A stretch of DNA of 64,000 nt. It comes from Flavobacteriales bacterium. GTDB taxonomy: Bacteria > Bacteroidota > Bacteroidia > Flavobacteriales > Flavobacteriaceae. The stretch is from positions 3,086 to 67,085 of the forward strand of contig JALWLE010000141.1 in the NCBI GenBank assembly GCA_026996605.1, written 5' to 3'. Below are positions 17,435-30,964 of this stretch, piece by piece; the first letter of the stretch is position 1; the number at the start of each line of letters is the position of its first letter. The notes beneath the pieces are model-generated. The model ran no database searches. It was given only the letters and a program-made list of their open reading frames with translations, and was not told the origin of the DNA. A program made the translations under genes and the position numbers.

Positions 17435-17953
17435 ATGTCAGCAAAAACTATTTCTCCAAGTCGTTATTTTTATACATTTTTTATAGTTTTTTTGATTTGG
17501 TATGCCTTTACGACTTCGTTACAACCTGCTGAAATCATAACCGGCATAGTTTTGAGTTTGGTGGTGGCATACATCACGGTAGTTAATTTTGATTGTTGCG
17601 ACCCGATTTTGATAACGCCGTCACACATTATATATTTTATCCAATACTTTTTAGTGTTTTTGGTAGCTTTGGTCAAAGCAAACTTTGATGTTGCCAAACG
17701 AGTTATTAATCCGAAATTACCAATCAATCCGGGTATTGTAAGCTTTGAGACTAAATTAAAAAATAATTTTGCAAAAATGGTTTTAGCTAATAGTATCACC
17801 TTAACCCCCGGAACCTTAACAATTGATGTAGTGGATGATAAATTTTATATACATTGGATAGACGTAACAACCGAAAATAAAGACGAAATTTATAAAGAAA
17901 TAGCCGAACCTTTTGAAAAGGTTTTGTTGAAGATATATGGCAGTAGCAAGTAG
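17435..17953 (+). CDS. MrpE/MnhE (MbxA-position) subunit of Mrp-type cation:proton antiporter module
   Basis: ANFDVAKRVINP...PGIV...LANSITLTPGTLTIDV...YIHWIDV matches the MnhE signature. The stop TAG lies inside a repeat. Confidence 0.8.
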   Translation: MSAKTISPSRYFYTFFIVFLIWYAFTTSLQPAEIITGIVLSLVVAYITVVNFDCCDPILITPSHIIYFIQYFLVFLVALVKANFDVAKRVINPKLPINPGIVSFETKLKNNFAKMVLANSITLTPGTLTIDVVDDKFYIHWIDVTTENKDEIYKEIAEPFEKVLLKIYGSSK

Positions 17954-18200
17954 AGACTAATTGTAATTCGTCTCTGTGAAAAGTGCAAATGTAGAGACGC
18001 ACGGTTGTGCGTCTGATGCGGAAAATTTGAAGAGACGTTTTGGCAAAACGTCTGAATTGAAAAATGAAAATGAAAAATTGACAATGTAGAGACGTTGCAC
18101 CGCAACGTCTGAAAAATCTAAAATCTGAAATGAATAATACATCGGACATCCGACATCAGATAACCAGTATCATCAGATAACCAAGTAACCAAATAATCAA
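17950..18200 (+). repeat. REP/BIME-like mosaic at junction 1
   Basis: Four GTAG(or GAAG)AGACG...CGTCT hairpins at 17950-17975, 17991-18018, 18029-18056 and 18086-18114. These are followed by AAATTGA/AAATCTG/ACATCSG heptamer tracts and a CA-rich AAATAACC-type tract (18158-18200) that ends at ATG 18201. Confidence 0.9.
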
Positions 18201-18458
18201 ATGAACATAGTAATATACATAGCAATTGTTTTAATCAGCATAGGTAGTTTTTTAGCTTTTATGCGTTTTGTAAAAGGACCTACGGCAGCCGACAGGGCTA
18301 TTGCCCTCGATACACTTTCGGTTATTGGAATAGCCGGATTGGTCTTATTGGGCTATTTATTTCAACGATACATTTATATCGATTTAGCACTAGTATATGC
18401 CGTTTTGGGATTTATTGGCACTATCGTGATTGCACGTTATATCGAAAAAGCATTGTAA
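18201..18458 (+). CDS. MrpF/MnhF-like subunit
   Basis: 85 aa, 3 TM. RFVKGPTAADRAIALDT motif. Confidence 0.8.
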   Translation: MNIVIYIAIVLISIGSFLAFMRFVKGPTAADRAIALDTLSVIGIAGLVLLGYLFQRYIYIDLALVYAVLGFIGTIVIARYIEKAL

Positions 18459-18823
18459 TGGATACATTAAATAATATATTGGAATACATCGGACTGTTTT
18501 TTGTGCTACTGGGCAGTATTTTTCTGTTTCTCGGTGCATTGGGAATTTATCGTATGCCCGATTTGTACAACCGCCTGCAAGCCGGCACCAAAGCATCTAC
18601 ATTAGGTGCGATGAGTATGGTTTTGGGAATAGGACTGATGCAACCCGGTTGGCTGATTAAACTTATCGTGATAATTCTGTTTATCGGGATATCCAATCCT
18701 TTGAGTTCACATGCCTTGGCAAGAGCATCGTACAAGAGTGGTATTCGTCCGTTTTTTAAGAAGAAGGTAGATGATTATGAGGAAGAAGTTGAAAGTGAGA
18801 AGGGAAAAATGGAAAGTGTGTAG
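18458..18823 (+). CDS. MrpG/MnhG-like subunit
   Basis: GALGIYRMPDLYNRLQAGTKASTLG motif. ATGA overlap with the preceding gene. Confidence 0.8.
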   Translation: MDTLNNILEYIGLFFVLLGSIFLFLGALGIYRMPDLYNRLQAGTKASTLGAMSMVLGIGLMQPGWLIKLIVIILFIGISNPLSSHALARASYKSGIRPFFKKKVDDYEEEVESEKGKMESV

Positions 18824-18845
18824 AGACGAATTGCAATTCGTCTCT
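18820..18845 (+). repeat. Single GTAG-footed REP-like hairpin (class 1) at junction 2
   Basis: gTAGagacgaattgcaattcgtctct. Its TAG is the stop codon of the MrpG-like gene. Confidence 0.85.
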
Positions 18846-18895
18846 TGTGAAAAGTGACAAAATGTAAATAGGAAGAAAAAGTAGTAAGCATTGCT

Positions 18896-18990
18896 GTCAT
18901 TTCGACAGAGCGACGTTAGGAGCGACGAGAAATCTCAAAATTATAAATTTGAAATAAACAAATAGATTTCTCACTGTGTTCGAAATGACA
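18896..18990. repeat. Second repeat family ('X' element): inverted half-sites GTCATTYCGA...GAGRAATCTC / AGATTTCTCAC...TCGAAATGAC
   Basis: The two arms are separated by 27 nt. Copies also occur at 24545-24618 and 28995-29066. Confidence 0.8.
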
Positions 18991-19018
18991 AAAAAATCAA
19001 TTAACAAAAAATAATAAA

Positions 19019-19294
19019 ATGGCTTTAATCTTATTTTTAATAGTAATGGCAATCATATTAATCGCAGCGGCAATCTATGCAGTGATGCAAAAAGATTTAT
19101 TGTATGCCGTTTTGGCAACGGGTATTATCAGCGTGGTACTATCCGTGTTTTTTTATCTGTTGCAGGCACCTGATGTGGCTATCACCGAAGCTGCAATAGG
19201 CATTGCTTTAACAACGATAATTTTTATCATTACCATACGAAATACATCACGAAATGAAGAGGAATACAGTGAGGATCATATCAAGAAGTTTTAA
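19019..19294 (+). CDS. MbhD/MrpB-N-terminal-like (DUF4040-type) small membrane subunit
   Basis: 91 aa, 3 TM. LQAPDVAITEAAIG motif typical of MbhD/MnhB N-terminal domain. Confidence 0.7.
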   Translation: MALILFLIVMAIILIAAAIYAVMQKDLLYAVLATGIISVVLSVFFYLLQAPDVAITEAAIGIALTTIIFIITIRNTSRNEEEYSEDHIKKF

Positions 19295-19309
19295 GTGGAA
19301 AATGCGAAC

Positions 19310-19528
19310 GTAGAGATGCACAATTGTGCGTCTGATGTAGAGACGAATTGCAATTCGTCTCTGTGAAAAATGCGAATGTAGAGACGCACGGTCGTGCGTC
19401 TGATGCGGAAAATTCGTAGAGACGTTTTGGTAAAACGTCTGAATAAAAAATTGTAAATGTAAAATTGATAATGTAGAGACGTTGCACCGCAACGTCTAAA
19501 ATCGAAAATCTGAAATCTGAAATCTGAA
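19310..19528 (+). repeat. REP/BIME-like mosaic at junction 3
   Basis: Five hairpins at 19310-19337, 19337-19362, 19378-19405, 19416-19444 and 19473-19497. An (AAATCTG)n tract then runs directly into ATG 19529. Confidence 0.9.
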
Positions 19529-20248
19529 ATGAAAAAATACATCATATTCATATTAATTGCCATATTGGGTTTGACATTAGCGCAGACCTTTAAAGCCATT
19601 CCTTTTGGAGCGGATAGACGTGGCGATTTGGAAAATCCGGATAAAGTAGCAGCATATTATTTAAAAGAATCACCGGAAACTTTGCAAACGGCTAATTCCA
19701 TTACGGCTATCGTTGTGAATTTCAGGGGGTTTGACACATTAGGCGAAGTAACCGTTTTGTTTTTAGCAGCAACTGGATTAGCAAGTATTTTATATCGAAA
19801 AGAAGAAGAAGATGAAGAGGAAGTAGAACGCGTTCGTTTGCCATCATCAAGTTTGGTACGAACAGGTGCCAAAATCTTATTTCCGTTGATGTTATTGTTG
19901 GGAATTTACGTGTTTGTACACGGACATTTAACACCGGGTGGAGGATTTCAAGGAGGCGCCATTATTGCTACCGGATTTTTGTTGATGCTGATAACCTATA
20001 AGCATTTTGAAACCAATCACAAGGTAATGGTTTGGCTTGAAAGTTTGGCCGGCTTGGCATTTGTAGCAGTCGGGCTTTACGGTTTGTTTGCCTATGGGTC
20101 GTTTTTGCAAAATACACATTCCGTCGGCACGCTGAACGATTTAATCAGTGGAGGCTTAATTCCTTTAATTTATATTTTTATCGGAATTAAAGTCGGCACG
20201 GAATTGACGAATATTTTGGATATTTTGTTGAAGATTAAAAAAAGCTGA
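19529..20248 (+). CDS. MrpB/MnhB-like subunit
   Basis: NSITAIVVNFRGFDTLGEVTVLF signature, followed by TM helices. Confidence 0.8.
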   Translation: MKKYIIFILIAILGLTLAQTFKAIPFGADRRGDLENPDKVAAYYLKESPETLQTANSITAIVVNFRGFDTLGEVTVLFLAATGLASILYRKEEEDEEEVERVRLPSSSLVRTGAKILFPLMLLLGIYVFVHGHLTPGGGFQGGAIIATGFLLMLITYKHFETNHKVMVWLESLAGLAFVAVGLYGLFAYGSFLQNTHSVGTLNDLISGGLIPLIYIFIGIKVGTELTNILDILLKIKKS

Positions 20249-20291
20249 CGCTTTTTTAGTGCGAAGTGGAAAGCGATAAAGTGGAAAGTGC

Positions 20292-20579
20292 GTAGAGACG
20301 AATTGCAATTCGTCTCTATGAAAAATACGAATGTAGAGACACACAATTGTGCGTCTGATATAGGAAGCGCGTAGAGACGTTTTGGTAAAACGTCTGAATT
20401 GAAAATTGAAAATGAAAAATTGAAAATTAATAACGTAGAGACGTTGCACCGCAATGTCTGAAAATCAAAAATCGAAAATCTGAAATGAATAATACATCGG
20501 ACATCCGACATCGCTCATCGGACAAATCATCCGACATCAATTAACCAAATAACCGGTATAACCAAATAACCAAAAATAA
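20292..20579 (+). repeat. REP/BIME-like mosaic at junction 4
   Basis: Four hairpins at 20292-20317, 20333-20359, 20371-20398 and 20435-20463. These are followed by heptamer tracts and a CA-rich tract ending at ATG 20580. Confidence 0.9.
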
Positions 20580-20972
20580 ATGACAGAATTTAACGACTTG
20601 TTCATCAAATATAAAGATCTGATAACCATTGCGGTTTACGGGACGGCTATAATGTTGATTTTGATTGGCTTATATGCCGTATTGCTCAAAAAACATTTGG
20701 TAAAAATAGTCATCGGCTTATCTATTATTGATGCCGGTGTGCATTTGCTTTTTGTAGCGGTGGGCTATATTCAAAATGGTACGGCACCCATCTTTTCACC
20801 CGGCAATGAACATGCTGCGAGTAAAATGGTTGACCCTGTTCCGCAAGCATTGGTATTGACGGCAATCGTTATTGGTTTTGCCGTAACGGCTTTGGCTTTG
20901 TCCTTGGTTATTCGATTATACAAGCATCATCATACAGCAAATATTGATCAAATAAAATCATTGAAATGGTAA
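20580..20972 (+). CDS. MrpC/MnhC (NuoK-like) subunit
   Basis: 130 aa, 3 TM. DPVPQALVLTAIVIGFAVTA motif. Confidence 0.8.
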   Translation: MTEFNDLFIKYKDLITIAVYGTAIMLILIGLYAVLLKKHLVKIVIGLSIIDAGVHLLFVAVGYIQNGTAPIFSPGNEHAASKMVDPVPQALVLTAIVIGFAVTALALSLVIRLYKHHHTANIDQIKSLKW

Positions 20973-22447
20973 TTAGTCCGGTTCATTATATCGTAGCGCC
21001 TTTGTTGGCGGCTTTTGCAATTCCGTTGCTCACCAAGCTTTATAAAGATGCGGCGCGTGTGGTGCCGGGAATTGTCTTGTTTTACAATGTCATAATTTCC
21101 TTTGTGTTGATGCAGCAAGTATCGCAAACCGGAATGATTAGCGAAGTGCTTGCCGGTTGGCGTCCGCCTTGGGGCATCAATTTGGTTTTGACACCTTTTA
21201 CGGCATTTTTGGCGACAATGATATCGGTTTTGGGTTTTATCATTTGGCTTTACGGCTTCCGCTTTAAGCGAACATTGAAGGGTGGGGTTGTCAAGCATTA
21301 CGAAATACTGCAAATGATGATGGTTGCCGGTTCTATTGGGGTGATTATTACCGGTGACTTGTTCAATATGTTTGTGTTTATCGAAATTGTCGGTATTACA
21401 GCCTATTCACTTACAGCATTTTACCGGGAGAGAAACGGTGCCGAAGCAGGTTTTAAATATTTATTAATCGGAAGTTTGGCTTCTACATTTCTGTTATTAG
21501 CTATTTTGATTATTTATACACAAACCGGCACGCTTAATATGGCGCAAATTGCTGAAAGAATGGCTTTTGTTCCGCATACAATGAAAGTAACCGCCTTAAT
21601 ATTTTTCTTAATAGCCTTGGGTATTGAAGCTGAAATGTTTCCGCTCAATGCTTGGGCACCGGATGCTTACGAGCAAGCACCTTCGCCAACAAGTGCCACC
21701 TTTGCTGCAGTGGTTTCCATAGCAGGCGTGTATGCTTTGGTTCGGGTATTGTTTACTTTGTTTGACGTATCAGGCGTGCATAATTATTTGATTGTAATGG
21801 GGTTTGTAACGATGTTGGTAGCGGAAATTACCGCTATTGCACAAAAAAATCTCAAACGAATGTTGGCTTATTCCAGTATCGGTCAAGTGGGCTTGGTATT
21901 GATTGCCTTTGGTATCGGTAGCAAGTTGGCGGTGTTTGGTGCAATATTTTTGATGCTCAATCATGCAGTTATTAAGTCCTTACTGTTTATGACAGGTAGT
22001 TATTTTATCTATAATGCTGATGACAAACGTTTGATTGGCTTAAACGGTATGCACAAACAGTTGCCTTATGTATCCGCTTTGTTTTCATTGGCTGCCTTTG
22101 CCATAGTGGGCTTTCCGCCTTTTTCAGGATTTTGGAGTAAATTTTATATCCTGATTTCGGCATCCGACCAAAAAATGATGTATCTGATTATTGGTATTTT
22201 GTTGGTAACGATTATCGAATTGGTTTACTATTTACGGGCAGTCGGACGTATTTATTTTGCCAAAGAAGAAATGGAAGACGTTGCACATCGTCCGTCTGTC
22301 AATGCTTTGGTGGCGATGTCATTATTAGCTTTGTTTATCATTGTAGTCGGTGTTTATCCCGATATTGTTACCGGCTATCTCAATGATGCCGCTAGTGCGT
22401 TATTAGATAAAGCGCATTATATTCAACAAATTTTAGGAAGTAAATAA
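20966..22447 (+). CDS. MrpD/NuoM/N-like proton/sodium-translocating antiporter-type subunit (MbxH position)
   Basis: 493 aa, about 14 TM. Conserved AYSSIGQVG and LNHAVIKSLLFM motifs. Overlaps the upstream gene by 7 nt. Confidence 0.8.
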   Translation: MVISPVHYIVAPLLAAFAIPLLTKLYKDAARVVPGIVLFYNVIISFVLMQQVSQTGMISEVLAGWRPPWGINLVLTPFTAFLATMISVLGFIIWLYGFRFKRTLKGGVVKHYEILQMMMVAGSIGVIITGDLFNMFVFIEIVGITAYSLTAFYRERNGAEAGFKYLLIGSLASTFLLLAILIIYTQTGTLNMAQIAERMAFVPHTMKVTALIFFLIALGIEAEMFPLNAWAPDAYEQAPSPTSATFAAVVSIAGVYALVRVLFTLFDVSGVHNYLIVMGFVTMLVAEITAIAQKNLKRMLAYSSIGQVGLVLIAFGIGSKLAVFGAIFLMLNHAVIKSLLFMTGSYFIYNADDKRLIGLNGMHKQLPYVSALFSLAAFAIVGFPPFSGFWSKFYILISASDQKMMYLIIGILLVTIIELVYYLRAVGRIYFAKEEMEDVAHRPSVNALVAMSLLALFIIVVGVYPDIVTGYLNDAASALLDKAHYIQQILGSK

Positions 22448-22451
22448 GATT

Positions 22452-24302
22452 ATGGAAATGAACAGTTTAGCTATCATATTAGGCGTACTTTTTACCGGCA
22501 GTATTTTGACGTTCAGCATTGATACATTCAATCGAAAACTCACCGGATGGACAGCATTTGCAACGCTTCTTATTGCTACAATATATTTTTATACCACTGG
22601 AAATGATGCTGATTTTAGTTTACAAATTGGTGGGATAACCTTAAAATGGGGACTATCGGCATTTCGCCTATTTTTCATAAATATCGTATTGATATTGGGT
22701 GTTTTAGCACTACTTTATTCCATCGGATATATGAAAGGAAAAGCCCGTTTGGGCTATTTTTACGCATCCTTTGTAATGACGATTTTAGGAATGTTCGGTG
22801 TAGTTATCAGTAAAGATTTCGTGTCCCTATTTATCTTTTGGGAAATTATGACTTGGTCGTCCTTCCTATTGATTATTTACAATGCCTATTACAAGATTAA
22901 AACAGAAGGACTGAAATATATGGTTTTTAGCGCTATCGGTGCGTATGCAATGCTGACAGCTATCGTTTTTATTTATCATTTTTACGGCACATTTGATATA
23001 GCCGAAGCGATGCAGAAAGGTGTCTTTTCGTTTGAAAATCACGCTTTTATACCCATATTTTTGGCATTGGGATTTGCCATAAAAGCCGCCGTGATGCCCT
23101 TTCACGTATGGGCACCTTCGGGTTATGCTAACAGTCCGATGTCATTTACATCAGTATTTTCTGGTGCAATGTCCAAAATGGGCGTGTTTGGACTCTTGTT
23201 GATTTTTGCAACTTATTACACATCTCATACACCGGGTGCTTATGTGTTCACGCAAATTCTGGCGTGGATGGGTGGTATTACCGCTGTGATGGGGACTATT
23301 TACGCACTCATACAAAACGATGCCAAAAAATTGTTGGCATATTCATCTATTGCACAATTAGGATACATTGTAGTGGCACTGTCCACAGGAACCAAATTGG
23401 GCGTAATGGCAGCCCTGTTTTTAGCGGTATTACACGCTGCCTTTAAAGGCGCCTTGTTTATGGTAGCAGGTGCGGTCGAAAAGCAAGCCGGCACTACGGA
23501 TATGACCAAAATTTCGGGTTTAATCAGAAAAATGCCATGGACGTTTTTTGTTGCCTTGGTTTCTGTTATTTCATTGGCTGGTGTGCCACCACTTGGGGGA
23601 TTTATCGGAAAATGGCTCTTATATGAAGCTTTGATTACCGAAAGTCATAACTATTTCTTGGTCATTGTGATATTTTTTTCATCGACAGCGGCATTTTTGT
23701 ATGCTTACCGATTTTTATTCGGATTATTTTTAGGACAAGAGGAAAAAGAAACAGAAAATGTAAAAGAAGCCCCTTTGACGATGCTCGTTCCGATGATTGT
23801 TTTGGCATTGGTTTCTATCATTACAGGTGCGATGCCCGGATTGATTTTTAAACCGGCAGCCGTAGCGATGCGAGATATCGGCTTTTCATCTATGGATTGG
23901 CAAATGTCCACATTATCAAATGTTTGGGGTAATAATGTAGATGTCAGTTTGATTGGTGCATTTATAGGTATTGTTTTCGTTTTGATTTTTGCATTTTTGA
24001 CATTAAAAGGACGTAAAACAACCCGTAAAGTTGGCACCAAAGAAATTTCCAGTTCAGGAGAATTGTGGAAAGAAGGCGAGAATTGGACCTTTCAACAAGA
24101 TTTTTTCAAACCCTTTGAACGCGCCGCATCGCCTTTATACAAGTTGAAAATGAACAAAATATGGGAAGATTTGGGTAATGCATTAGAAGCATTCTTTAAT
24201 TTTTTCAGACGCATATATACCGGCAATGGACAGACGTATGCGATGTATGTTGTGGGATTTCTTGTTTTGTTGATTTTGTTTAGAGATTATATATTTAAGT
24301 AG
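22452..24302 (+). CDS. Second antiporter-type subunit, NuoL/MrpA/MrpD-like with C-terminal extension (MbxH' position)
   Basis: 616 aa. FWEIMTWSSF, AYSSIAQLGY and LHAAFKGALFM motifs. An extra ~130-aa tail ends in a TM helix. Confidence 0.8.
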   Translation: MEMNSLAIILGVLFTGSILTFSIDTFNRKLTGWTAFATLLIATIYFYTTGNDADFSLQIGGITLKWGLSAFRLFFINIVLILGVLALLYSIGYMKGKARLGYFYASFVMTILGMFGVVISKDFVSLFIFWEIMTWSSFLLIIYNAYYKIKTEGLKYMVFSAIGAYAMLTAIVFIYHFYGTFDIAEAMQKGVFSFENHAFIPIFLALGFAIKAAVMPFHVWAPSGYANSPMSFTSVFSGAMSKMGVFGLLLIFATYYTSHTPGAYVFTQILAWMGGITAVMGTIYALIQNDAKKLLAYSSIAQLGYIVVALSTGTKLGVMAALFLAVLHAAFKGALFMVAGAVEKQAGTTDMTKISGLIRKMPWTFFVALVSVISLAGVPPLGGFIGKWLLYEALITESHNYFLVIVIFFSSTAAFLYAYRFLFGLFLGQEEKETENVKEAPLTMLVPMIVLALVSIITGAMPGLIFKPAAVAMRDIGFSSMDWQMSTLSNVWGNNVDVSLIGAFIGIVFVLIFAFLTLKGRKTTRKVGTKEISSSGELWKEGENWTFQQDFFKPFERAASPLYKLKMNKIWEDLGNALEAFFNFFRRIYTGNGQTYAMYVVGFLVLLILFRDYIFK

Positions 24303-24305
24303 CAA

Positions 24306-24654
24306 GTAGAGACGTACGGTCGTGCGTCTGATGAGGGATAAGAGATAAATTAGTGGAAAGTGGAAAGCGTAGAGACGAATTGCAATTCGTCTCTGTGGAA
24401 AAAGAAAAATATGTAGAGACGCACGGTCGTGCGTCTGATGTAGAAATTGTGTAGAGATGTTTTGGTAAAACGTCTAAATAGAAATTTAAAATTGATAATG
24501 TAGAAACGTTGCACGCAACGTCTGAAAAATATGCAATGAATAGTGAGATTTCTCACTACGTTCGAAATGACAGGCGTTGTCATTCCGACAGAGCGACGAA
24601 GGAGCGACGAGGAATCTCAAATAACCAAATAACCGATTAACCAAATAACCAGAA
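24306..24654 (+). repeat. REP/BIME-like mosaic at junction 7, including an X element
   Basis: Five hairpins at 24306-24333, 24369-24394, 24413-24440, 24451-24475 and 24500-24527. X element at 24545-24618. CA-rich tract at 24619-24654 abuts ATG 24655. Confidence 0.9.
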
Positions 24655-25608
24655 ATGATATTAACAATCAAAATATTAGGCGCATTACTAACCGCAATCT
24701 TGGCTTTTACAGTCGGGATGTTTTACGGTGGTTTACGACGTAAGATTACGGCGCGTGTACAAAATCGTGTAGGACCGCCGGTTTACCAGAATTTTTTAGA
24801 TTTAATGAAATTGCAAGCCAAAGAAACCAATATTGCGCACGGTTTTATGGGGCATATGGCACCAATGTGGATTATCATAGCGGCGATGACTGTTTTGATG
24901 TTTATTCCCGTCTTGCACAACGGTTTATGGTTTGACAATTTAACCTTTAAAGGCGATTTGATTTTCATCCTTTATATGATGGTCTTTGGGTCATTGGGAA
25001 TGGCATTAGGTGCCGGACAATCCGGTAATCCCAATTCGGCAATTGGTGTAACTAGGGGTTTGGCAATGATGGTGGGTTATGAAATTCCGTTTGTGTTGTC
25101 ACTGGTAGCCATTATGATACAATTTCATACGACATCCTTGCAAGATTTAATGCAATACCAACAAGAAACCGGTAGATGGATTATTATGGAGAATCCCTTT
25201 GCATTTCTAGCGGCATTATTATCTTCCTTGGGAATGTTTCGCTATTCGCCTTTTGATATTGTAGGCGCACCGGCAGAATTGGCATCGGGACCGGTATCGG
25301 AATTCGGTGGCAAATATCTCGGAACAATGATGAGTGGTGGTGCTGTGTTTGCCTTTATCAAATTGGTTTTGTTTGTCGATATTTTCTTGGGAGGCGCCGG
25401 TAATACGGAATTAGAAGGTATTCTAGGCACATTAGCAGGATTAGGTGAATTGTTATTAAAAACATTTTTGTTTTATATGATTCCCGTTTTTATCGGATTA
25501 GTTAGTCCCAGATTTAGAACCGAACAAGCCATTCGATTTTTTTGGAAATGGCCAACGTTTTTAGGGATTTTAGCAATTGTTTGGGCGTTGTATCATCCTA
25601 TTCGTTAA
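24655..25608 (+). CDS. NuoH/MbhM/HyfC-like membrane subunit
   Basis: RKITARVQNRVGPP motif and about 8 TM helices. Confidence 0.8.
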   Translation: MILTIKILGALLTAILAFTVGMFYGGLRRKITARVQNRVGPPVYQNFLDLMKLQAKETNIAHGFMGHMAPMWIIIAAMTVLMFIPVLHNGLWFDNLTFKGDLIFILYMMVFGSLGMALGAGQSGNPNSAIGVTRGLAMMVGYEIPFVLSLVAIMIQFHTTSLQDLMQYQQETGRWIIMENPFAFLAALLSSLGMFRYSPFDIVGAPAELASGPVSEFGGKYLGTMMSGGAVFAFIKLVLFVDIFLGGAGNTELEGILGTLAGLGELLLKTFLFYMIPVFIGLVSPRFRTEQAIRFFWKWPTFLGILAIVWALYHPIR

Positions 25609-25621
25609 AAATTAAAAGTGT

Positions 25622-25826
25622 GTAGAGACGAATTGAAATTCGTCTCTGTGGAAAGTTAAAAGTTGAATGTAGAGACGTTTTGGTAAAACGTCTGAATTGA
25701 AAATTGAAAATGGATAATTAATAAATAACATCCGACATCGGTCATCCGACAATCAATAAACCAGTATCATCAAATAACCCCTGATGAGAATCGGGGTAAG
25801 CAAATAACCACATAACCGAAAATAAA
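25622..25826 (+). repeat. REP/BIME-like mosaic at junction 8
   Basis: Hairpins at 25622-25647 and 25669-25696. ACATCSG-like tract. CA-rich tract with embedded hairpin cccctgatgagaatcgggg, ending at ATG 25827. Confidence 0.85.
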
Positions 25827-26480
25827 ATGACAAATAATCCGGACAAAAATATCAAAACACTCGGCATACCAACCGAAGATGAAATTCGTCAAGCGCAGAT
25901 TGAATTTGCGCCGCGTTGCACATCAGCCGGGCGGGTCAATGATAAGGAAACGCAAAAAATGGTGCAATATATTTTGAACTTTGCTCGTAAGCATTCATTG
26001 TTTGTCTTAGCTTATGGCACTGGTTGTGGCGCTATTGAAATTCCGGCAACGATGACATCCCGTTACGATGCGGAACGCTTTGGAATTCGCGGGGCGGCAA
26101 CCCCTAGGCAAGCAGATGTCTTGCTGATTACCGGTTACCTATCCACCAAAACCTTAAAAAGAGTTATCCGCGTGTATGAGCAAATGCAAGACCCTAAATA
26201 TGTCATTGCTTTTGGTTCGTGTACCATTAACGGTGGGATGTATTTTGACAGTTATAATACTATCAAAGCGCTCGACCGGTATTTACCGGTAGATGTATAT
26301 ATCGCAGGATGTATGCCGCGTCCCGAAAGTGTGATTAAGGGCTTTATCAAATTACAAGAATTAATACAAAACGGCAATGCCGGCGGTGGCAAATGTTATC
26401 GCGATAATTTGGAATGGTATCGTGCCAATCAACAAAAAGTAATCAAAAATTGGGATTTTCCCGATGAGTATAATTGGTAA
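25827..26480 (+). CDS. NuoB/MbhJ-like [4Fe-4S] small subunit
   Basis: GTGCGAIE...RQADVLLITG...GSCTINGG...GCMPRPE. The first motif has a single Cys where NuoB has CC. Confidence 0.8.
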   Translation: MTNNPDKNIKTLGIPTEDEIRQAQIEFAPRCTSAGRVNDKETQKMVQYILNFARKHSLFVLAYGTGCGAIEIPATMTSRYDAERFGIRGAATPRQADVLLITGYLSTKTLKRVIRVYEQMQDPKYVIAFGSCTINGGMYFDSYNTIKALDRYLPVDVYIAGCMPRPESVIKGFIKLQELIQNGNAGGGKCYRDNLEWYRANQQKVIKNWDFPDEYNW

Positions 26481-26487
26481 GTGAAAC

Positions 26488-26522
26488 GATGATATGGTTA
26501 TTTGTTGATATGGTTATATGAT
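26488..26522. repeat. TG-rich tract, the inverted counterpart of the AAATAACC/ATATCATC tracts
   Basis: gatgatatggttatttgttgatatggttatatgat is complementary to 26920-26965 downstream of the four-helix-bundle gene. Confidence 0.7.
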
Positions 26523-26547
26523 AGTTGAACAGAAAAAAGGATATTGA

Positions 26548-26913
26548 ATGAAACGACAATTTTCTTTTGAAAAATTAGAAGTTTGGCAAAATGCAATTGA
26601 TTTATCGATTGATGTTTATCAATTGACGAAAGATTTTCCGGATGAAGAAAAATTTGTTTTAGTTAATCAAATGAGGAGAGCAGCCTTATCCATTTCGTCA
26701 AATATTGCAGAAGGAAACGGTAGAGAAACAAATAACGATCAAGCCAGATTTACAACAATGGCATACGGCAGTCTGATGGAATTATTAAACCAATTGATTT
26801 TTTCCTATAAATTAGGATATATATCAGAAAATCAATTAGACGAATTAAGAGATAAGATTAATCTTATTTCAAACCAATTAAACAGATTAAGAAAATATCA
26901 AAAAAACAGATAA
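26548..26913 (+). CDS. Four-helix-bundle protein (23S rRNA intervening-sequence / Avd-like family) inserted inside the operon
   Basis: 121 aa. FEKLEVWQNAIDL...QMRRAALSISSNIAEGNGR...SLMELLNQL pattern of the S23-IVS family. Confidence 0.8.
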   Translation: MKRQFSFEKLEVWQNAIDLSIDVYQLTKDFPDEEKFVLVNQMRRAALSISSNIAEGNGRETNNDQARFTTMAYGSLMELLNQLIFSYKLGYISENQLDELRDKINLISNQLNRLRKYQKNR

Positions 26914-26919
26914 CCTATT

Positions 26920-27044
26920 AACCAATATCATCAAATAACCAGTTAACCAATATCATCAAATAACCCCCGACAATAGTTGGGGTAAGCAGATAATCAAATA
27001 ATCAGTATAACCAGTTAACCGATTAACCAAATAACCAATAAGAA
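26920..27044 (+). repeat. CA-rich AAATAACC/ATATCATC tract array with embedded small hairpin, abutting ATG 27045
   Basis: aaccaatatcatcaaataacc occurs twice, then cccccgacaatagttgggg, then ataaccagttaaccgattaaccaaataacc. Confidence 0.85.
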
Positions 27045-27602
27045 ATGCAAGAAAACATATTAAATCAACTCAAAAAAGTCTTTAAAATTGATGGCGAGAT
27101 AAAAACGCCAATGCGAATAAAAATCGTAGCAGACAAGGACTTGGTGTCGAGTATTTTGCTTTATTTAAAAAATCAGATGGGTTTTATCCACTTGAATCAT
27201 ATGTCTTGTGTGGATTGGATTGAGGACAATAAATTTGAGTTGGTGTATATCGTTTGGCATCCGGAACAAAAGCAAACCGTTTTGGTGCATACGTTTATCG
27301 ACAGGAATAATCCGGTAATGGAAAATATAGATACGATATGGGATCAAGCCAATACCTACGAAAGGGAAATGCGAGAGATGTATGGAATAGAATTTCCCGG
27401 ATTGATAGGCGCTAAAGAATTTATTTTAGAAGATTGGCAAGAAATGCCCCCGATGCGACGTGATTTTGATACGAAAAAATATGCACAAGAAACCTATGAA
27501 ACGCGTCCCGGAAGAGAAAACGCCCGTGATGTAAGAGAAGAATTGATGAAACGAAGCGGCGAAGAATTACCGGATTTTGCGAAAAAGTATTCTAGGGATT
27601 GA
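27045..27602 (+). CDS. NuoC/MbhK-like subunit
   Basis: ANTYEREMREMYGIEFPG signature (ERE..D/E.GI.F). Confidence 0.8.
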   Translation: MQENILNQLKKVFKIDGEIKTPMRIKIVADKDLVSSILLYLKNQMGFIHLNHMSCVDWIEDNKFELVYIVWHPEQKQTVLVHTFIDRNNPVMENIDTIWDQANTYEREMREMYGIEFPGLIGAKEFILEDWQEMPPMRRDFDTKKYAQETYETRPGRENARDVREELMKRSGEELPDFAKKYSRD

Positions 27603-27642
27603 GTGTTTAGTGGAAACCGGAAAAGTGCTAAGTGGAAAGTGC

Positions 27643-27792
27643 GTAGAGACGTTTTGGCAAAACGTCTGAATTGAAAATTGAAAATGGATAATTGACAACG
27701 TAGAGACATTGCAAGCAACGTCTAAAAAATCTGAAATCTGAAATCGCAAATCTGAAATATAAAATCAAATAACCGATTAACCAAATAACCAA
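27643..27792 (+). repeat. REP/BIME-like mosaic at junction 11
   Basis: Hairpins at 27643-27670 and 27700-27727. AAATCTG heptamers. CA-rich tract ending at ATG 27793. Confidence 0.85.
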
Positions 27793-28896
27793 ATGTTAGA
27801 AAAAGAAACAACCTTATATTTAGGACCACAGCACCCGGGGATTACCGGAAATATGATGATAAAGCTCAAAGTCAAAGGCGATGTGGTAACACAAGCCGAA
27901 ACGCACGTTGGGTATTTGCATCGGGCTTTTGAGAAACTGATTGAAGGACGCAATTGGTTACAATCCTTTACGTTATTGTGCCGTTTTTGTGTACCGGAGC
28001 CGGACCCTATGGAACTGACATATGCACGTGCCGTAGAGCAAATCGAAGGGCGTGAAGTACCGCCACGTGCTAAATATATCCGGACTATCGTTGCGGAATT
28101 AGCTCGTATTCAATCGTTTTTGTTGTGGTATGGCGGTCAATCCGGTTCGAGTGGTTTATACACATTGGGACAATGGAGTGTCGGAGACAGAAACTATATT
28201 CTCGACTTATTTGAAGATCTGACCGGTGCACGAATTTATCATATGTATATGTGGCCCGGTGGTGTGCGTCGCGATTTGCCGGAAGGTTGGGTTGATAAGG
28301 CATATAAGACGATGGATTATCTGGAAAAACGATTAGATGATTACAATAAATTATTATTTGACAATGCCATTTTTCAAAAACGGGCACAAGGTGTCGGCAT
28401 TATCCCCAAAGATAAAGCCATAGAATGGGGCGTTGTAGGCGCACCGTTGCGTGGCACCGGTATTAAGCACGATGTGCGTATCGATGAACCTTACGAAGCT
28501 TACTCCGATTTGGATTTTGTTGTGCCAACTTACGAAGGAGGTGACGTGTGGGCAAGAGCACTCGTTCGTAGAGATGAGATTAAGCAATCTATAAGTATTA
28601 TCAGACAAGCTCTGGATAAAATGCCGGGCGGTAGTTATTACAATCGTATTCCAAACCCGATGAAATGGACGGTTCCGGCAGGAGAAGCTTGGGTAAAAAC
28701 CGAAAGTGTCCGTGGCGAAATAGGATTTTATGTGGTCAGTGATGGTAGCAACAAACCAAGACGGGTACATTTGAAAGGTGCTGCTTATACACACGGTGTT
28801 AGTGTGTTGGAAAAAATATTGCCCGGACAGAATATTGCCGATGTATCATTTATTTTGAATTCGTTAGGCGTTTGTCCCCCGGAGATTGAGAGGTAG
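27793..28896 (+). CDS. NuoD / group-4 [NiFe]-hydrogenase-large-subunit-like protein with an incomplete Ni-Fe ligand signature (MbxL/MbsL-like)
   Basis: GPQHPGITG start. HVGYLHRAFEKL. LLCRFCVPEPDP where hydrogenases have RxCGxCxxxH. C-terminus LGVCPPEIER where hydrogenases have DPCxxCxxR. Confidence 0.8.
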   Translation: MLEKETTLYLGPQHPGITGNMMIKLKVKGDVVTQAETHVGYLHRAFEKLIEGRNWLQSFTLLCRFCVPEPDPMELTYARAVEQIEGREVPPRAKYIRTIVAELARIQSFLLWYGGQSGSSGLYTLGQWSVGDRNYILDLFEDLTGARIYHMYMWPGGVRRDLPEGWVDKAYKTMDYLEKRLDDYNKLLFDNAIFQKRAQGVGIIPKDKAIEWGVVGAPLRGTGIKHDVRIDEPYEAYSDLDFVVPTYEGGDVWARALVRRDEIKQSISIIRQALDKMPGGSYYNRIPNPMKWTVPAGEAWVKTESVRGEIGFYVVSDGSNKPRRVHLKGAAYTHGVSVLEKILPGQNIADVSFILNSLGVCPPEIER

Positions 28897-28926
28897 CTAG
28901 CGCGAGTTAAAAGTTGATAGTTGGAA

Positions 28927-29066
28927 GTAGAAACGCACGATCGTGCATCTGATGTAGAAAGCGCAGATGAATTGAAAATTGAAAATGGAGAATTAGATTT
29001 CTCACTGCGTTCGAAATGACAGCAATTGTCATTCCGACAGAGCGAGGGACGAGCGACGAGGAATCT
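28927..29066 (+). repeat. Degenerate REP-like hairpin plus X element at junction 12
   Basis: gtagaaacgcacgatcgtgcatctgatg at 28927-28954. X element agatttctcactgcgttcgaaatgaca-gcaat-tgtcattccgacagagcg...gaggaatct at 28995-29066. Confidence 0.8.
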
Positions 29067-29173
29067 AATCTAAAAATTTGATATGTAATAATAAGTTTTA
29101 AGAAGATGTCATTTAAAAAGTAGAATTTTGGTTTGTATTTCTGCAAGGCACTTCACACTAAAAAATATAGACA

Positions 29174-30964
29174 ATGAGTATAATAGATTTGAAAGGCATA
29201 TTAACACCAATGACGGCGCTGAAGCAAATTGGAAAACAACCGCATACCATAAGTTTTCCAGATGAGCAGAAAGATATTTCGCCGCGTTATAGAGGTTTTC
29301 ATTACAACGATTTGGAGCAATGTATCGGTTGTGGCAACTGTGCGACTATTTGTATGAATGAAGCCATTGATATGATTGCATTGGCGGGCATTGAGGGACA
29401 AGCCGGTGATAGTGGCTTACGCCCGCAGATAGACTATGGGCGTTGTTGTTATTGTGCCTTGTGTGTCGATGTATGTCCGTCAGGCTCGCTCAATATGACA
29501 CAAGATTTTATCAAAGTCAGCCCTGATCCTTTTGATTTCTTGATGGTGCCGGGTAAGGACAATCCCGAGGCAAAAGAAAAATTGAGTTTTACGGCAGATC
29601 TAGATACATCGCTCAATGTATTTGACCGTGTGCCAATGCGTGAACTCGACCCGGAAGAACGGGTAAAATCTTTTGCCGAAGTATTTTTGGGCTATAACGA
29701 AGAAGAAGCCCGTATTGAAGCCAGTCGTTGTATCAGTTGCGGACTTTGTACTGAAAATTGTCCGGTGCATATGCACATACCGGAATATATCAATGCCATT
29801 GCCAAAGCTGATGATGAAGCGGCAATTAAGATCATTTATGACAATAACGATTTACCCGAAATGTGTGGTAAAGTTTGTACTCGTCGTTGTGAAGATGTTT
29901 GTGCGTTGCAGGTAAGAGGAGAAGCCGTTGCGATTCGTTGGCTTAAACGCTATGCAACCGAACGGGCTGAAAATGCCGATATGATTGCCGAAATTGTCAA
30001 TCCTGAAATCAGAGAACCGAATCAATATAAAGTTGGTATTATTGGTGCCGGTCCGGGTGGATTAACCGCTGCATATTATTTGGCATTACGCGGTTACAAT
30101 GTAACGGTTTACGAAGCGCATAAAGATCCGGGCGGTATGATAATGTATGGTATTCCAAAATACCGTTTGCCGTATGAAAGTATCCAAAAACAGGTGGATT
30201 ATATGAAAAAAGTTGGTGTAAAAATACATTTCAATACGGTGGTTGGAAAAGATATAAGTTTTGATGAAATTTATAACAACAGCGATGCCGTTTTTATGGC
30301 GGTTGGACTGCAAGATGCATGGAATTTGGGCATAGAAAATGACGATGCCAAAGGTGTATGGTCTGCTATTAATTTTCTAGGAAAAGTCAATTCCGGCGAA
30401 CCGGTTGATATTGGAAAACGCGTCGTTGTAGTAGGCGGTGGTGATGTGTCTATTGACTGTTCTCGTGTATCGCGCCGTTTGGGTGCCGAAGTTTATCAAT
30501 CTTACAGACGTCGTATTCAAGATATGCCTGCGGATTTAGAAGAAATTGAAGGTGCAGAAGCCGAAGGTGTACATATTATGCCACAAACCATTCCGACACG
30601 TGTGATTAAAGACGAAAACGGTAAAGTCAAAGGATTGGAATACGTCAGAGCCGAAATGATTTCGGAAGGCGGTGGACGTCCGCGACCAAAACCTATTGAG
30701 GGCAGCGAAACCATAATCGAATGTGATGCCGTGATTGCCGCAATCGGACAAAAAGCTGATTACAGCTTACTACCGGAACATATTTTAGCCAAATTGGAAA
30801 TGCAAAAAAATAAAATTGTGGTGGATGAGAATAGGAAAACATCTATTCCTAAATTATTTGCCGGTGGTGATGCCGTTGTTTCCGGTCGTAATGATGCCAT
30901 TTCGGCAATTGCAGATGGCTACGCTGCTACAAAAGCGATTGATGCGATGTTGATGGGGAGTTAA
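29174..30964 (+). CDS. Fusion protein: NuoI/MbhN-like 2x[4Fe-4S] ferredoxin domain plus GltD/SudA/NfnB-like NAD(P)H-dependent FAD oxidoreductase
   Basis: N-terminal CIGCGNCATIC and CCYCALCVDVCP. Then RCISCGLCTENCP...MCGKVCTRRCEDVC, and GIIGAGPGGLTAAYYL...GGMIMYGIPKYRLP plus a second Rossmann VVVVGGGDVSID. Confidence 0.85.
   Translation: MSIIDLKGILTPMTALKQIGKQPHTISFPDEQKDISPRYRGFHYNDLEQCIGCGNCATICMNEAIDMIALAGIEGQAGDSGLRPQIDYGRCCYCALCVDVCPSGSLNMTQDFIKVSPDPFDFLMVPGKDNPEAKEKLSFTADLDTSLNVFDRVPMRELDPEERVKSFAEVFLGYNEEEARIEASRCISCGLCTENCPVHMHIPEYINAIAKADDEAAIKIIYDNNDLPEMCGKVCTRRCEDVCALQVRGEAVAIRWLKRYATERAENADMIAEIVNPEIREPNQYKVGIIGAGPGGLTAAYYLALRGYNVTVYEAHKDPGGMIMYGIPKYRLPYESIQKQVDYMKKVGVKIHFNTVVGKDISFDEIYNNSDAVFMAVGLQDAWNLGIENDDAKGVWSAINFLGKVNSGEPVDIGKRVVVVGGGDVSIDCSRVSRRLGAEVYQSYRRRIQDMPADLEEIEGAEAEGVHIMPQTIPTRVIKDENGKVKGLEYVRAEMISEGGGRPRPKPIEGSETIIECDAVIAAIGQKADYSLLPEHILAKLEMQKNKIVVDENRKTSIPKLFAGGDAVVSGRNDAISAIADGYAATKAIDAMLMGS

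Follow-up and report, generated by a model that had tools for sequence, protein, structure and literature searches.

What is the role of a protein that joins the iron-sulfur connecting subunit of a complex I-like enzyme to a flavoprotein of the glutamate synthase type, and which electrons does it handle? The question is raised by the open reading frame (ORF) at 29174-30964 (+) of a 64,000-nt stretch of Flavobacteriales DNA (contig JALWLE010000141.1 of assembly GCA_026996605.1, positions 3,086 to 67,085), to which, at its full length, we refer as the window. A preliminary description, made from the letters alone, had taken this ORF to be one 596-aa fusion of a NuoI/MbhN-type ferredoxin subunit with a GltD/SudA/NfnB-like module, and had suggested that pyridine nucleotide is thereby wired directly to the complex in place of the NuoEFG module of complex I. 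Our favored interpretation, to which we assign a probability of roughly 55%, is that the fusion serves as the subunit through which electrons enter a bacterial, Mrp-linked, ion-translocating oxidoreductase of the MBX/MBS type, and that it connects NADPH to an acceptor that is likely sulfane or polysulfide sulfur.

The ORF initiates with ATG, encodes 596 aa and is free of internal stops, and all motifs of the first reading were found in it verbatim: CIGCGNCATIC (C50-C60), CCYCALCVDVCP (C91-C101), GIIGAGPGG (aa 288-296) and VVVGGGDVS (aa 418-426). Domain scans agreed with the single fusion, returning the Fer4/NuoI part followed by Fer4_20 and Pyr_redox_2, with the FAD- and NAD(P)H-binding motifs present. 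Using Pfam, we detected a Fer4_7/Fer4_21 dicluster 2x[4Fe-4S] domain at aa 49-108, Fer4_20 (PF14691) at aa 163-267 (1.2e-28) and Pyr_redox_2 at aa 285-581 (8e-30); using NCBIfam, the NuoI model TIGR01971 matched aa 13-114 (7.6e-28) and the NADPH-glutamate-synthase/GltD models matched aa ~150-595 (1e-109). The parts of the fusion are as follows.

29174-29512 (+): NuoI/MbsN-like 2x[4Fe-4S] connecting domain, aa 1-113 (homology aa ~9-113), with C50, C53, C56, C60 and C91, C94, C97, C101; matched by TIGR01971 and 6u8y_N
29513-29659 (+): linker, aa 114-162 (~45 aa), the break point of natural split versions; AlphaFold2 (AF2) confidence low at aa 156-172
29660-29974 (+): Fer4_20 domain, 2x[4Fe-4S], aa 163-267, with C186, C189, C192, C196 and C231, C235, C239, C243; K258 at the position of E117 of Thermotoga maritima NfnB
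30026-30916 (+): FAD domain (GIIGAGPGG) and NAD(P)H domain (VVVGGGDVS, Y444-R445-R446-R447), aa 285-581, by Pyr_redox_2 and NfnB alignment; R331 at flavin N5

In comparisons with solved structures, aa 152-595 resembled T. maritima NfnB (4ylf_B, 1.2e-92) and also Pyrococcus furiosus NfnI-L (5jca_L), and the best relative of aa 9-113 was P. furiosus MbsN (6u8y_N, 2.6e-23), followed by MbhN and the NuoI of complex I at ~1e-11. Together with the TIGR01971 match, this bears out the assignment of the N-terminal part to two-cluster subunits of the NuoI/MbhN type. A Foldseek search with an AF2 model recovered the fold of NfnB, GltD and dihydropyrimidine dehydrogenase and nothing else. One NCBIfam model, NF010590 (PRK13984, 'putative oxidoreductase'), also covers the protein in one stretch, its positions 8-607 of 611 aligning with aa 6-594 (5.1e-192), but the score of 639.2 bits lies below the curated equivalog cut-off of 946; to judge from this score, the architecture is shared but the window protein belongs to a diverged clade. 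The gene is usually annotated 'FAD-dependent oxidoreductase' or 'glutamate synthase small chain'.

A search of 5.8 billion proteins returned more than 3,900 homologues of the fusion. The best 120 are ~595-600 aa long and align with 97-100% coverage, except for two shorter entries (536 and 578 aa), and when representatives at 50% identity were searched exhaustively without a profile, about 12 distinct full-length fusion clusters of 586-619 aa emerged; one fusion form of 764 aa (P0125) carries an added C-terminal rubrerythrin-like domain. When genomes were scanned with the N-terminal 222 aa (NuoI part, linker and Fer4_20 start), at least 546 relatives were confirmed. Among the best 80, nearly all cover essentially the full query, the exceptions being cut by contig ends, and their sources are Flavobacteriales (95% identity), Bacteroidales, Prolixibacteraceae, Saprospiraceae, Melioribacter, 'Chlorobiota' metagenome-assembled genomes (MAGs), Calditrichaceae, Deferribacteres, Leptospira, Rectinema, Marinimicrobia, Acidobacteria, Aminicenantes, Chromatiaceae, Thiohalocapsa marina, Ca. 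Thiosymbion, Burkholderiales, Rhodocyclales, Gallionellaceae, Cloacimonadales and Fermentibacteraceae. Proteins 92-95% identical to the window fusion are already in public MAGs, and full-length copies 86-94% identical lie on the independent MAG contigs L003-L006. Orthologues at the operon end, which occur in Thermotogae as well, span 41-95% identity to the window fusion. By tblastn the gene order is conserved, with the fusion last, in each locus with enough flank (~80 loci from many phyla), and the same order with a terminal fusion is present in Ca. Sulfidibacterium hydrothermale and Thermosipho melanesiensis (the same 13-gene cluster).

The two halves also occur as separate genes, on two short metagenomic contigs (L083 and L084). 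One split form consists of a 131-aa MbxN-like gene, a 25-nt gap and a 442-aa GltD-like gene, and the other of a NuoD-like gene, a 176-aa MbxN-like gene and a 450-aa GltD-like gene, with a 4-nt overlap. The break falls in the linker of the window protein, which is conserved within its clade: homology of the N-terminal part stops at aa ~133-134 and GltD-like homology begins at aa ~150-155. Thus, near mbx-like clusters both fused and split forms are found, always after the NuoD-like gene, and the existence of both as natural states with the halves adjacent argues that the two halves act as one physical unit.

To compare the cofactor sites, we used 13 fusions that are only 41-68% identical to the window protein. 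All 16 Fe-S cysteines (eight in the NuoI part and eight in Fer4_20) were invariant, as were G291, G293 and P294 of the FAD motif, G421-G423 of the NAD(P)H motif, and R331, which aligns with R187 of T. maritima NfnB, the arginine that bonds flavin N5. The C-terminal part is therefore a complete module of the GltD/SudA/NfnB type, as had been proposed. At the nucleotide site, Y444-R445-R446(-R447) aligned with Y310-R311-R312 of T. maritima NfnB; this YRR motif holds the 2'-phosphate of NADPH in NfnB, and it separates the NADP(H)-type DsrL-2 from the NAD(H)-type DsrL-1, which has S/T-x-x. Across the loci L001-L082, the site for the 2'-phosphate of NAD(P)H (aa 436-456, window positions 30479-30541) divides the family cleanly into two clades. 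The YRRR clade comprises the window protein and those of Bacteroidota, Ignavibacteria, Calditrichia and Acidobacteria, and a clade with T-(S/A/C)-L-E and a 6-7 residue insertion comprises those of Proteobacteria, Spirochaetes, Cloacimonadales, a second Draconibacterium type and Thermotogae. From these motifs the YRRR clade appears to be of the NADPH type, and by the usual Rossmann-fold rule we would expect the other clade to prefer NADH. The YRR and module motifs thus support the pyridine-nucleotide wiring of the preliminary description, and it is from these motifs that we infer the further part of that claim, that pyridine nucleotide would be the direct donor or acceptor of the fused complex.

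One ligand position differs from NfnB. The invariant K258 of the fusions sits where NfnB has E117, a Glu ligand of the proximal cluster, and no NfnA/SudB or GltB partner gene was found in the operon, nor an NfnA gene in its flanks. Because of this replacement, and because no NfnA-like partner is encoded, bifurcation of the Nfn type would not be expected, and a role of the GltD-like part as a plain NADPH/FAD-to-cluster input module fits these sequences better. A bifurcating Nfn was rejected on both counts.

The fusion is the final gene of a co-directional 13-gene mrp-mbx operon (17435-30964, +), in the order MrpE, MrpF, MrpG, MbhD, MbhE/MnhB, NuoK-like, two MrpD-like, NuoH, NuoB, NuoC, NuoD and fusion, which matches the gene order of Pyrococcus mbx/mbs. 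The genes before the fusion are listed here, together with one inserted gene.

17435-17953 (+): MrpE/MbxA-like membrane subunit, operon gene 1 (Pfam MNHE 3e-42), in a position shared by related loci
18201-18458 (+): MrpF/MbxB-like subunit (Pfam MrpF_PhaF 4.6e-19)
18458-18823 (+): MrpG/MbxC-like subunit (Pfam PhaG_MnhG_YufB 4e-25)
19019-19294 (+): MbhD/MbxD-like subunit (Pfam MbhD 7e-20)
19529-20248 (+): MbhE/MnhB-like subunit (Pfam MnhB 2.6e-25, MbhE 1.3e-9)
20580-20972 (+): NuoK/MrpC-like subunit, MbxG (Pfam Oxidored_q2 4.7e-28)
20966-22447 (+): MrpD-like antiporter subunit, MbxH (Pfam Proton_antipo_M 1.4e-64; NCBIfam PRK08377/PRK08376)
22452-24302 (+): second MrpD/NuoL-like antiporter subunit, MbxH', 616 aa (Proton_antipo_M 1.1e-57; NCBIfam PRK08668 over its full length, 7.9e-142)
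24655-25608 (+): NuoH/MbxM-like subunit, membrane anchor for the peripheral arm (Pfam NADHdh 9e-58)
25827-26480 (+): NuoB/MbsJ-like carrier of the proximal [4Fe-4S] cluster, with three conserved Cys (GTGCG, GSCT, AGCMP); MbsJ 6u8y_J 2.3e-66, alignment from aa 45
26548-26913 (+): gene for a 23S rRNA intervening-sequence protein (IVP) between nuoB and nuoC, not a subunit of the complex (Pfam 23S_rRNA_IVP, PF05635, 7.9e-39)
27045-27602 (+): NuoC/MbxK-like subunit (Pfam Complex1_30kDa 9e-26)
27793-28896 (+): NuoD/MbsL-like large subunit with two vestigial NiFe Cys and without the quinone-ligand His/Tyr (MbsL 6u8y_L 1.4e-106)

The catalytic subunits indicate which kind of enzyme the fusion serves. 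The NuoD-like subunit matched MbsL far better than Nqo4 of Thermus (1.4e-106 versus 3.3e-74) or MbhL (1.5e-38), and the match of the NuoB-like subunit to MbsJ at 2.3e-66 compares with ~1e-38 or weaker for the corresponding subunits of NDH-1, complex I and MBH. The motifs RFCVPEPD and GVCPPEIER of the NuoD-like subunit align with RICVPEPD and NCPPDIDR of MbsL, such that two of the four NiFe cysteines are kept (MbsL C85 and C385) and two are lost. In the alignment with Nqo4, both quinone ligands are absent, His38 being replaced by Thr and Tyr87 by Val, and the NuoB-like subunit has GTGCG without the tandem cysteine pair (CC) of complex I. The paper describing the MBS structure assigned catalysis to a proximal [4Fe-4S] cluster with three cysteine ligands (MbsJ C28, C93 and C123) and found C25 too distant to ligate. 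The NuoB-like subunit of the window has equivalents of these three cysteines only, and Gly at the position of C25, the first Cys of the MbsJ CTGC motif. Of 72 homologues encoded beside a fusion gene, all with the three ligating cysteines, 67 have Gly or Ala at this position, and we infer from the alignment that the proximal [4Fe-4S] cluster of the window complex is held by three cysteines. The MBS-like scores, the vestigial cysteines, the missing quinone ligands and the three-Cys site together point to a catalytic core that is MBS-like and neither hydrogenase- nor quinone-reductase-like.

Two candidates were rejected on these data: a NiFe hydrogenase of the MBH type, given the MbhL score and the two missing NiFe cysteines, and a complex-I-like quinone reductase, given the lack of quinone ligands and of the tandem cysteines. 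No NuoE, NuoF or NuoG domain was matched in the operon ORFs or the scanned flanking ORFs. The earlier proposal that the GltD-type module replaces NuoEFG therefore stands as a functional analogy and not as a homologous swap, since the host complex is MBS/MBX-like and not complex I. By NCBIfam cut-offs, the NuoD-like subunit (NF004739, 425.7 versus 360 bits) and the NuoB-like subunit (NF005012, 205.9 versus 116) would be labeled 'NADH-quinone oxidoreductase subunit D/B'. This naming is probably a systematic mis-annotation of an MBS-like family, because the quinone-site signatures are absent and the subunits are MBS-like.

The sequence shows the domains, the conserved ligands, the cofactor motifs, the place in the operon and the MBS-like character of the catalytic subunits. 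The scheme that we build on these predicts, in addition, a chain of clusters linking the halves, a direction of electron flow, an acceptor and a coupling to ions. NADPH, recognized through the YRR motif, would pass a hydride to FAD, and electrons would then travel singly, first over the Fer4_20 cluster pair and next over the NuoI-type pair, to the three-Cys proximal [4Fe-4S] cluster of the MbsJ-like subunit. There, in the MbsL/MbsJ/MbsM-like chamber, a non-quinone, non-proton acceptor would be reduced, most likely sulfane/polysulfide sulfur by homology to MBS, and turnover would drive H+/Na+ translocation via the two MrpD-like pumps and the Mrp module. The driving force would be roughly 50-100 mV and, because it is small, the enzyme might also run in reverse. 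MBH conserves energy on only 12 kJ/mol per 2e-, so by our own estimate a NAD(P)H-to-polysulfide step would be energetically comparable. The mbx operon of T. maritima is induced by elemental sulfur (S0) and thiosulfate; the connection to the fused operons runs via Thermosipho melanesiensis, a relative within the Thermotogae that carries the fusion.

Several points weigh against this interpretation. The wiring of every fused complex has been read from sequence and not from enzyme work, and the AF2 model of the fusion (from a 72-sequence alignment) had a mean per-residue confidence (pLDDT) of 75 and a predicted template modeling score (pTM) of 0.58, with the Fer4_20 region below 50, which is too weak for inter-cluster distances. 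Melioribacter roseus is reported as not stimulated by S0 or thiosulfate, and a MAG assigned to this species carries the operon (L039). Degli Esposti (2015; PMC4758237) suggests that the flavoprotein is an NAD(P)+-reducing exit and not an entry site. Finally, many hosts are sulfur oxidizers (Chromatiaceae, Thiohalocapsa, Ca. Thiosymbion), and for some lineages at least this points to electron flow the other way or to a different substrate.

This last observation leads to the first of two alternatives that we consider unlikely, and about equally so: that the same enzyme works in reverse, with sulfide/polysulfide oxidation driven by the ion-motive force reducing NAD(P)+ and so providing the cell with reductant. 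The operon is present in the sulfur-oxidizing Chromatiaceae, Thiohalocapsa marina, Ca. Thiosymbion, Gallionellaceae and Burkholderiales, and a putative Mrp-Mbx complex is co-expressed with the reductive tricarboxylic acid cycle in the Riftia symbiont, for which the direction is stated as unknown. We estimate, moreover, that the gap between the NAD(P)H and S0/HS- potentials is small. The window itself speaks less for this possibility. Its flanks encode an endonuclease with a type IX secretion system (T9SS) tail and FadL, and from these genes and the nearest relatives it looks like part of a Flavobacteriales genome of heterotrophic appearance, in which NADPH formation by reverse flow is less obviously needed.

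The other alternative is the original MBX model of a ferredoxin:NAD(P)+ oxidoreductase, with reduced ferredoxin as the donor, the fused flavoprotein as the NADP+-reducing exit and ion pumping like that of Rnf. It is how the literature reads mbx-like operons with a gltD-like subunit (PMC4758237), and how older work read Pyrococcus Mbx, and NfnB-type modules do exchange electrons with ferredoxin via their distal cluster. Yet a path from ferredoxin over the NuoI clusters and the GltD clusters to FAD skips the proximal cluster together with the MbsL/J/M chamber, in which all complex-I-like enzymes have their conserved coupling site, although the skipped subunits and the three-Cys cluster are strictly conserved. 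In addition, later work showed that Pyrococcus MBX is the sulfane reductase MBS. It is because the path bypasses this strictly conserved catalytic and coupling site that we rank the exit model below NADPH input to an MBS-like site.

Less probable again is an alternative NAD(P)H:menaquinone oxidoreductase, in effect complex I with a GltD-type N-module. The NCBIfam naming of the large subunit as NuoD, at 425.7 bits against the cut-off of 360, and the NuoEFG analogy of the preliminary description both agree with it, but the His38-to-Thr and Tyr87-to-Val replacements, the missing tandem cysteines, the far higher scores of both subunits against MBS, and a membrane arm of the Mrp type with MbhD/MbhE subunits all argue the other way. 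An assembly-derived chimera or frameshift artefact, conceivable in that natural two-gene versions could be spuriously joined, can be dismissed as practically excluded by the more than 3,900 homologues, a fusion of the same length in thousands of independent sequences including complete genomes, the closely similar full-length copies in four MAG loci and the linker conserved in the clade.

We tentatively extend the favored interpretation beyond the window. The fused operons may represent a widespread class of bacterial NAD(P)H-dependent, ion-pumping sulfane/polysulfide reductase, or its reverse driven by the ion-motive force, in which the GltD-type module would be a third independent solution besides NuoEFG and FpoF, the NADPH and NADH clades would be tuned to their hosts, and a dihydroorotate dehydrogenase (DHOD)-like protein of the PRK07565 family would perhaps join as a further partner in one lineage out of four.

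The gene for this protein (PRK07565, NF005741, 'dihydroorotate dehydrogenase-like protein', ~328 aa) lies near the operon in 23 of ~80 loci from several phyla (L001/L002 1-932, L025 10863-11846, L037 3667-4644, L032 4194-5165, L069 11806-12768 and 18 more) and mostly adjoins it, directly before mrpE or directly after the fusion. Because the combination of a GltD-like and a DHOD-like protein is the pairing of dihydropyrimidine dehydrogenase, it may, by analogy, be an additional redox partner. A rubrerythrin/ferritin-like gene (~150-180 aa) follows the fusion in 13 of the 50 loci with a downstream ORF, including that of Thermosipho melanesiensis (L085 11853-12356) as well as L041, L043, L051, L053 and L058. 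Neither the rubrerythrin-like nor the PRK07565 DHOD-like gene had a tblastn match within the 64-kb window. Divergently upstream of the Thermosipho mbx-GltD operon, a Rex-like regulator (Put_DNA-bind_N and CoA_binding; L085 475-1104, -) hints at NADH/NAD+-responsive control of that operon.

The window operon has features of its own around nuoB. As listed, the NuoB/MbsJ-like ORF has 217 aa, but MbsJ and distant orthologues (~181 aa) are homologous to it only from ~Met45 onward, so the start may lie near Met45, or the 44-aa extension, which is conserved in L003-L006, may be specific to this Flavobacteriales lineage. The IVP gene is absent between nuoB and nuoC in all other loci; homologues occur elsewhere in the close Flavobacteriales relatives L003 (~4957), L004 (~3765) and L006 (~9463), in the mrpD'/nuoH spacer or the nuoD/fusion spacer, with L006 differing in this from L003/L004, and the gene thus looks mobile or repeatedly inserted.

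Almost all intergenic spacers of the operon are filled with families of short palindromic repeats, such as GTAGAGACGAATTGCAATTCGTCTCT, GTAGAGACGCACGGTCGTGCGTCTGATG and GTAGAGACGTTTTGGCAAAACGTCTGAAT (repeat-bearing spacers 17950-18200, 18805-19015, 19296-19530, 20255-20580, 24292-24655, 25607-25830, 26905-27045, 27606-27792 and 28913-29170). The core pattern GTAGAGACG-N10-CGTCTC has 11 matches against 0 expected, all in operon spacers between 17950 and 25646; ten are on the + strand and one is on the minus strand, where it overlaps a + copy as the reverse reading of the same palindrome. The spacers also hold TTGAAAATTGAAAATG tracts and 8-nt periodic AATAACC repeats ahead of start codons. An element of ~100 nt, AGATTTCTCACTGCGTTCGAAATGACAG...TGTCATTCCGACAGAGCGACG..GGAGCGACGAGGAATCT, with the internal inverted repeat GAAATGACA/TGTCATTCC, is present in three copies, each in a spacer of the operon (18895-18990, partial; 24526-24624; 28975-29073). 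Among 85 related loci, the palindrome was seen in L003 (95% identical) only, and there in different spacers; in other lineages the operon is tightly packed. The palindromes could be invaders resembling repetitive extragenic palindromic sequences or miniature inverted-repeat transposable elements (REP/MITE-like), or elements that act at the RNA level.

MBX/MBS-type complexes are regarded as an intermediate stage in the evolution from membrane-bound hydrogenases to complex I and, to our knowledge, only the ferredoxin-dependent archaeal MBX/MBS enzyme has been studied so far. The bacterial fusion suggests a way in which the NuoI-type subunit can acquire an entry module for pyridine nucleotide independently of NuoEFG. 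Since the operon occurs in Bacteroidota, Ignavibacteria, Acidobacteria, Spirochaetes, sulfur-oxidizing Proteobacteria and Thermotogae, the reaction could be relevant to how sulfur and redox are balanced in sulfidic sediments. The generic annotation of the fusion and its partner genes hides the system in metabolic reconstructions.

The fusion architecture is already known, from NCBIfam NF010590 and from Degli Esposti (2015), and the window protein is a typical family member that introduces no new principle. In searches of the literature on Mbx in Bacteroidetes, Ignavibacteria and related taxa, we found no paper discussing an operon of the window type; the operon is likewise missing from the genome and omics papers on Melioribacter roseus, and neither the MBS structure paper nor a related review treats NAD(P)H-linked versions from bacteria. 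Our analysis adds to this how widely the fusion is distributed, that the fourth cysteine at the proximal cluster has been lost almost universally, that the family has NADPH- and NADH-type clades as well as split forms, and that it differs from NfnB by Lys in place of E117.

Compared with known systems, the window is closest in domain order, and in the terminal position of the fusion in the same 13-gene operon, to the NF010590/PRK13984 family and the mbx-like operons of Thermotoga and proteobacteria. In the latter, a gltD-related, NAD(P)-handling flavoprotein replaces NuoI and a rubrerythrin is often next (Degli Esposti, 2015; PMC4758237), a picture that Thermosipho melanesiensis reproduces, rubrerythrin-like gene included. 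The window protein belongs to the YRRR clade, whereas theirs has T-S/A/C-L-E and the 6-7 residue insertion, and in the window no rubrerythrin-like gene follows the fusion. P. furiosus MBS has the same set of subunits, encoded in the same order, as the window complex. In both, the large subunit retains a pair of vestigial NiFe cysteines and the proximal cluster has three Cys ligands, and MbsL, MbsJ and MbsN are the best solved relatives of the three peripheral subunits of the window complex. The differences are that MbsN is a free 208-aa subunit fed by ferredoxin, whereas the N subunit of the window is covalently joined to an NADPH/FAD/2x[4Fe-4S] module, and that the non-ligating Cys25 of MbsJ is Gly in the window.

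The C-terminal module is ~38-39% identical to NfnB/SudA/GltD proteins (T. maritima NfnB, 4YLF; P. furiosus NfnI-L, 5JCA; A. brasilense GltD, 6S6S) over a Foldseek alignment of ~470 columns and has their eight-Cys Fer4_20 domain, FAD and NADPH motifs, YRR and flavin-N5 arginine, but K258 takes the place of the Glu ligand of NfnB and the NfnA/SudB or GltB gene is missing from the operon. NuoEFG of complex I is a functional analogue, a pyridine-nucleotide/flavin entry that feeds an Fe-S chain to NuoI and NuoB, but is unrelated in sequence and fold (FMN/NuoF versus FAD/GltD), and the window complex is without a quinone site. The likeness to DsrL lies in an NfnB-type module covalently joined to a 2x[4Fe-4S] ferredoxin domain, which links NAD(P)(H) to a sulfur-metabolizing Fe-S enzyme, and in the same division into NADP(H) and NAD(H) types by YRR versus S/T-x-x; DsrL, however, has its ferredoxin domain at the C-terminus and the soluble DsrAB as partner, whereas the ferredoxin domain of the fusion is N-terminal, of the NuoI type, and joins a membrane complex.

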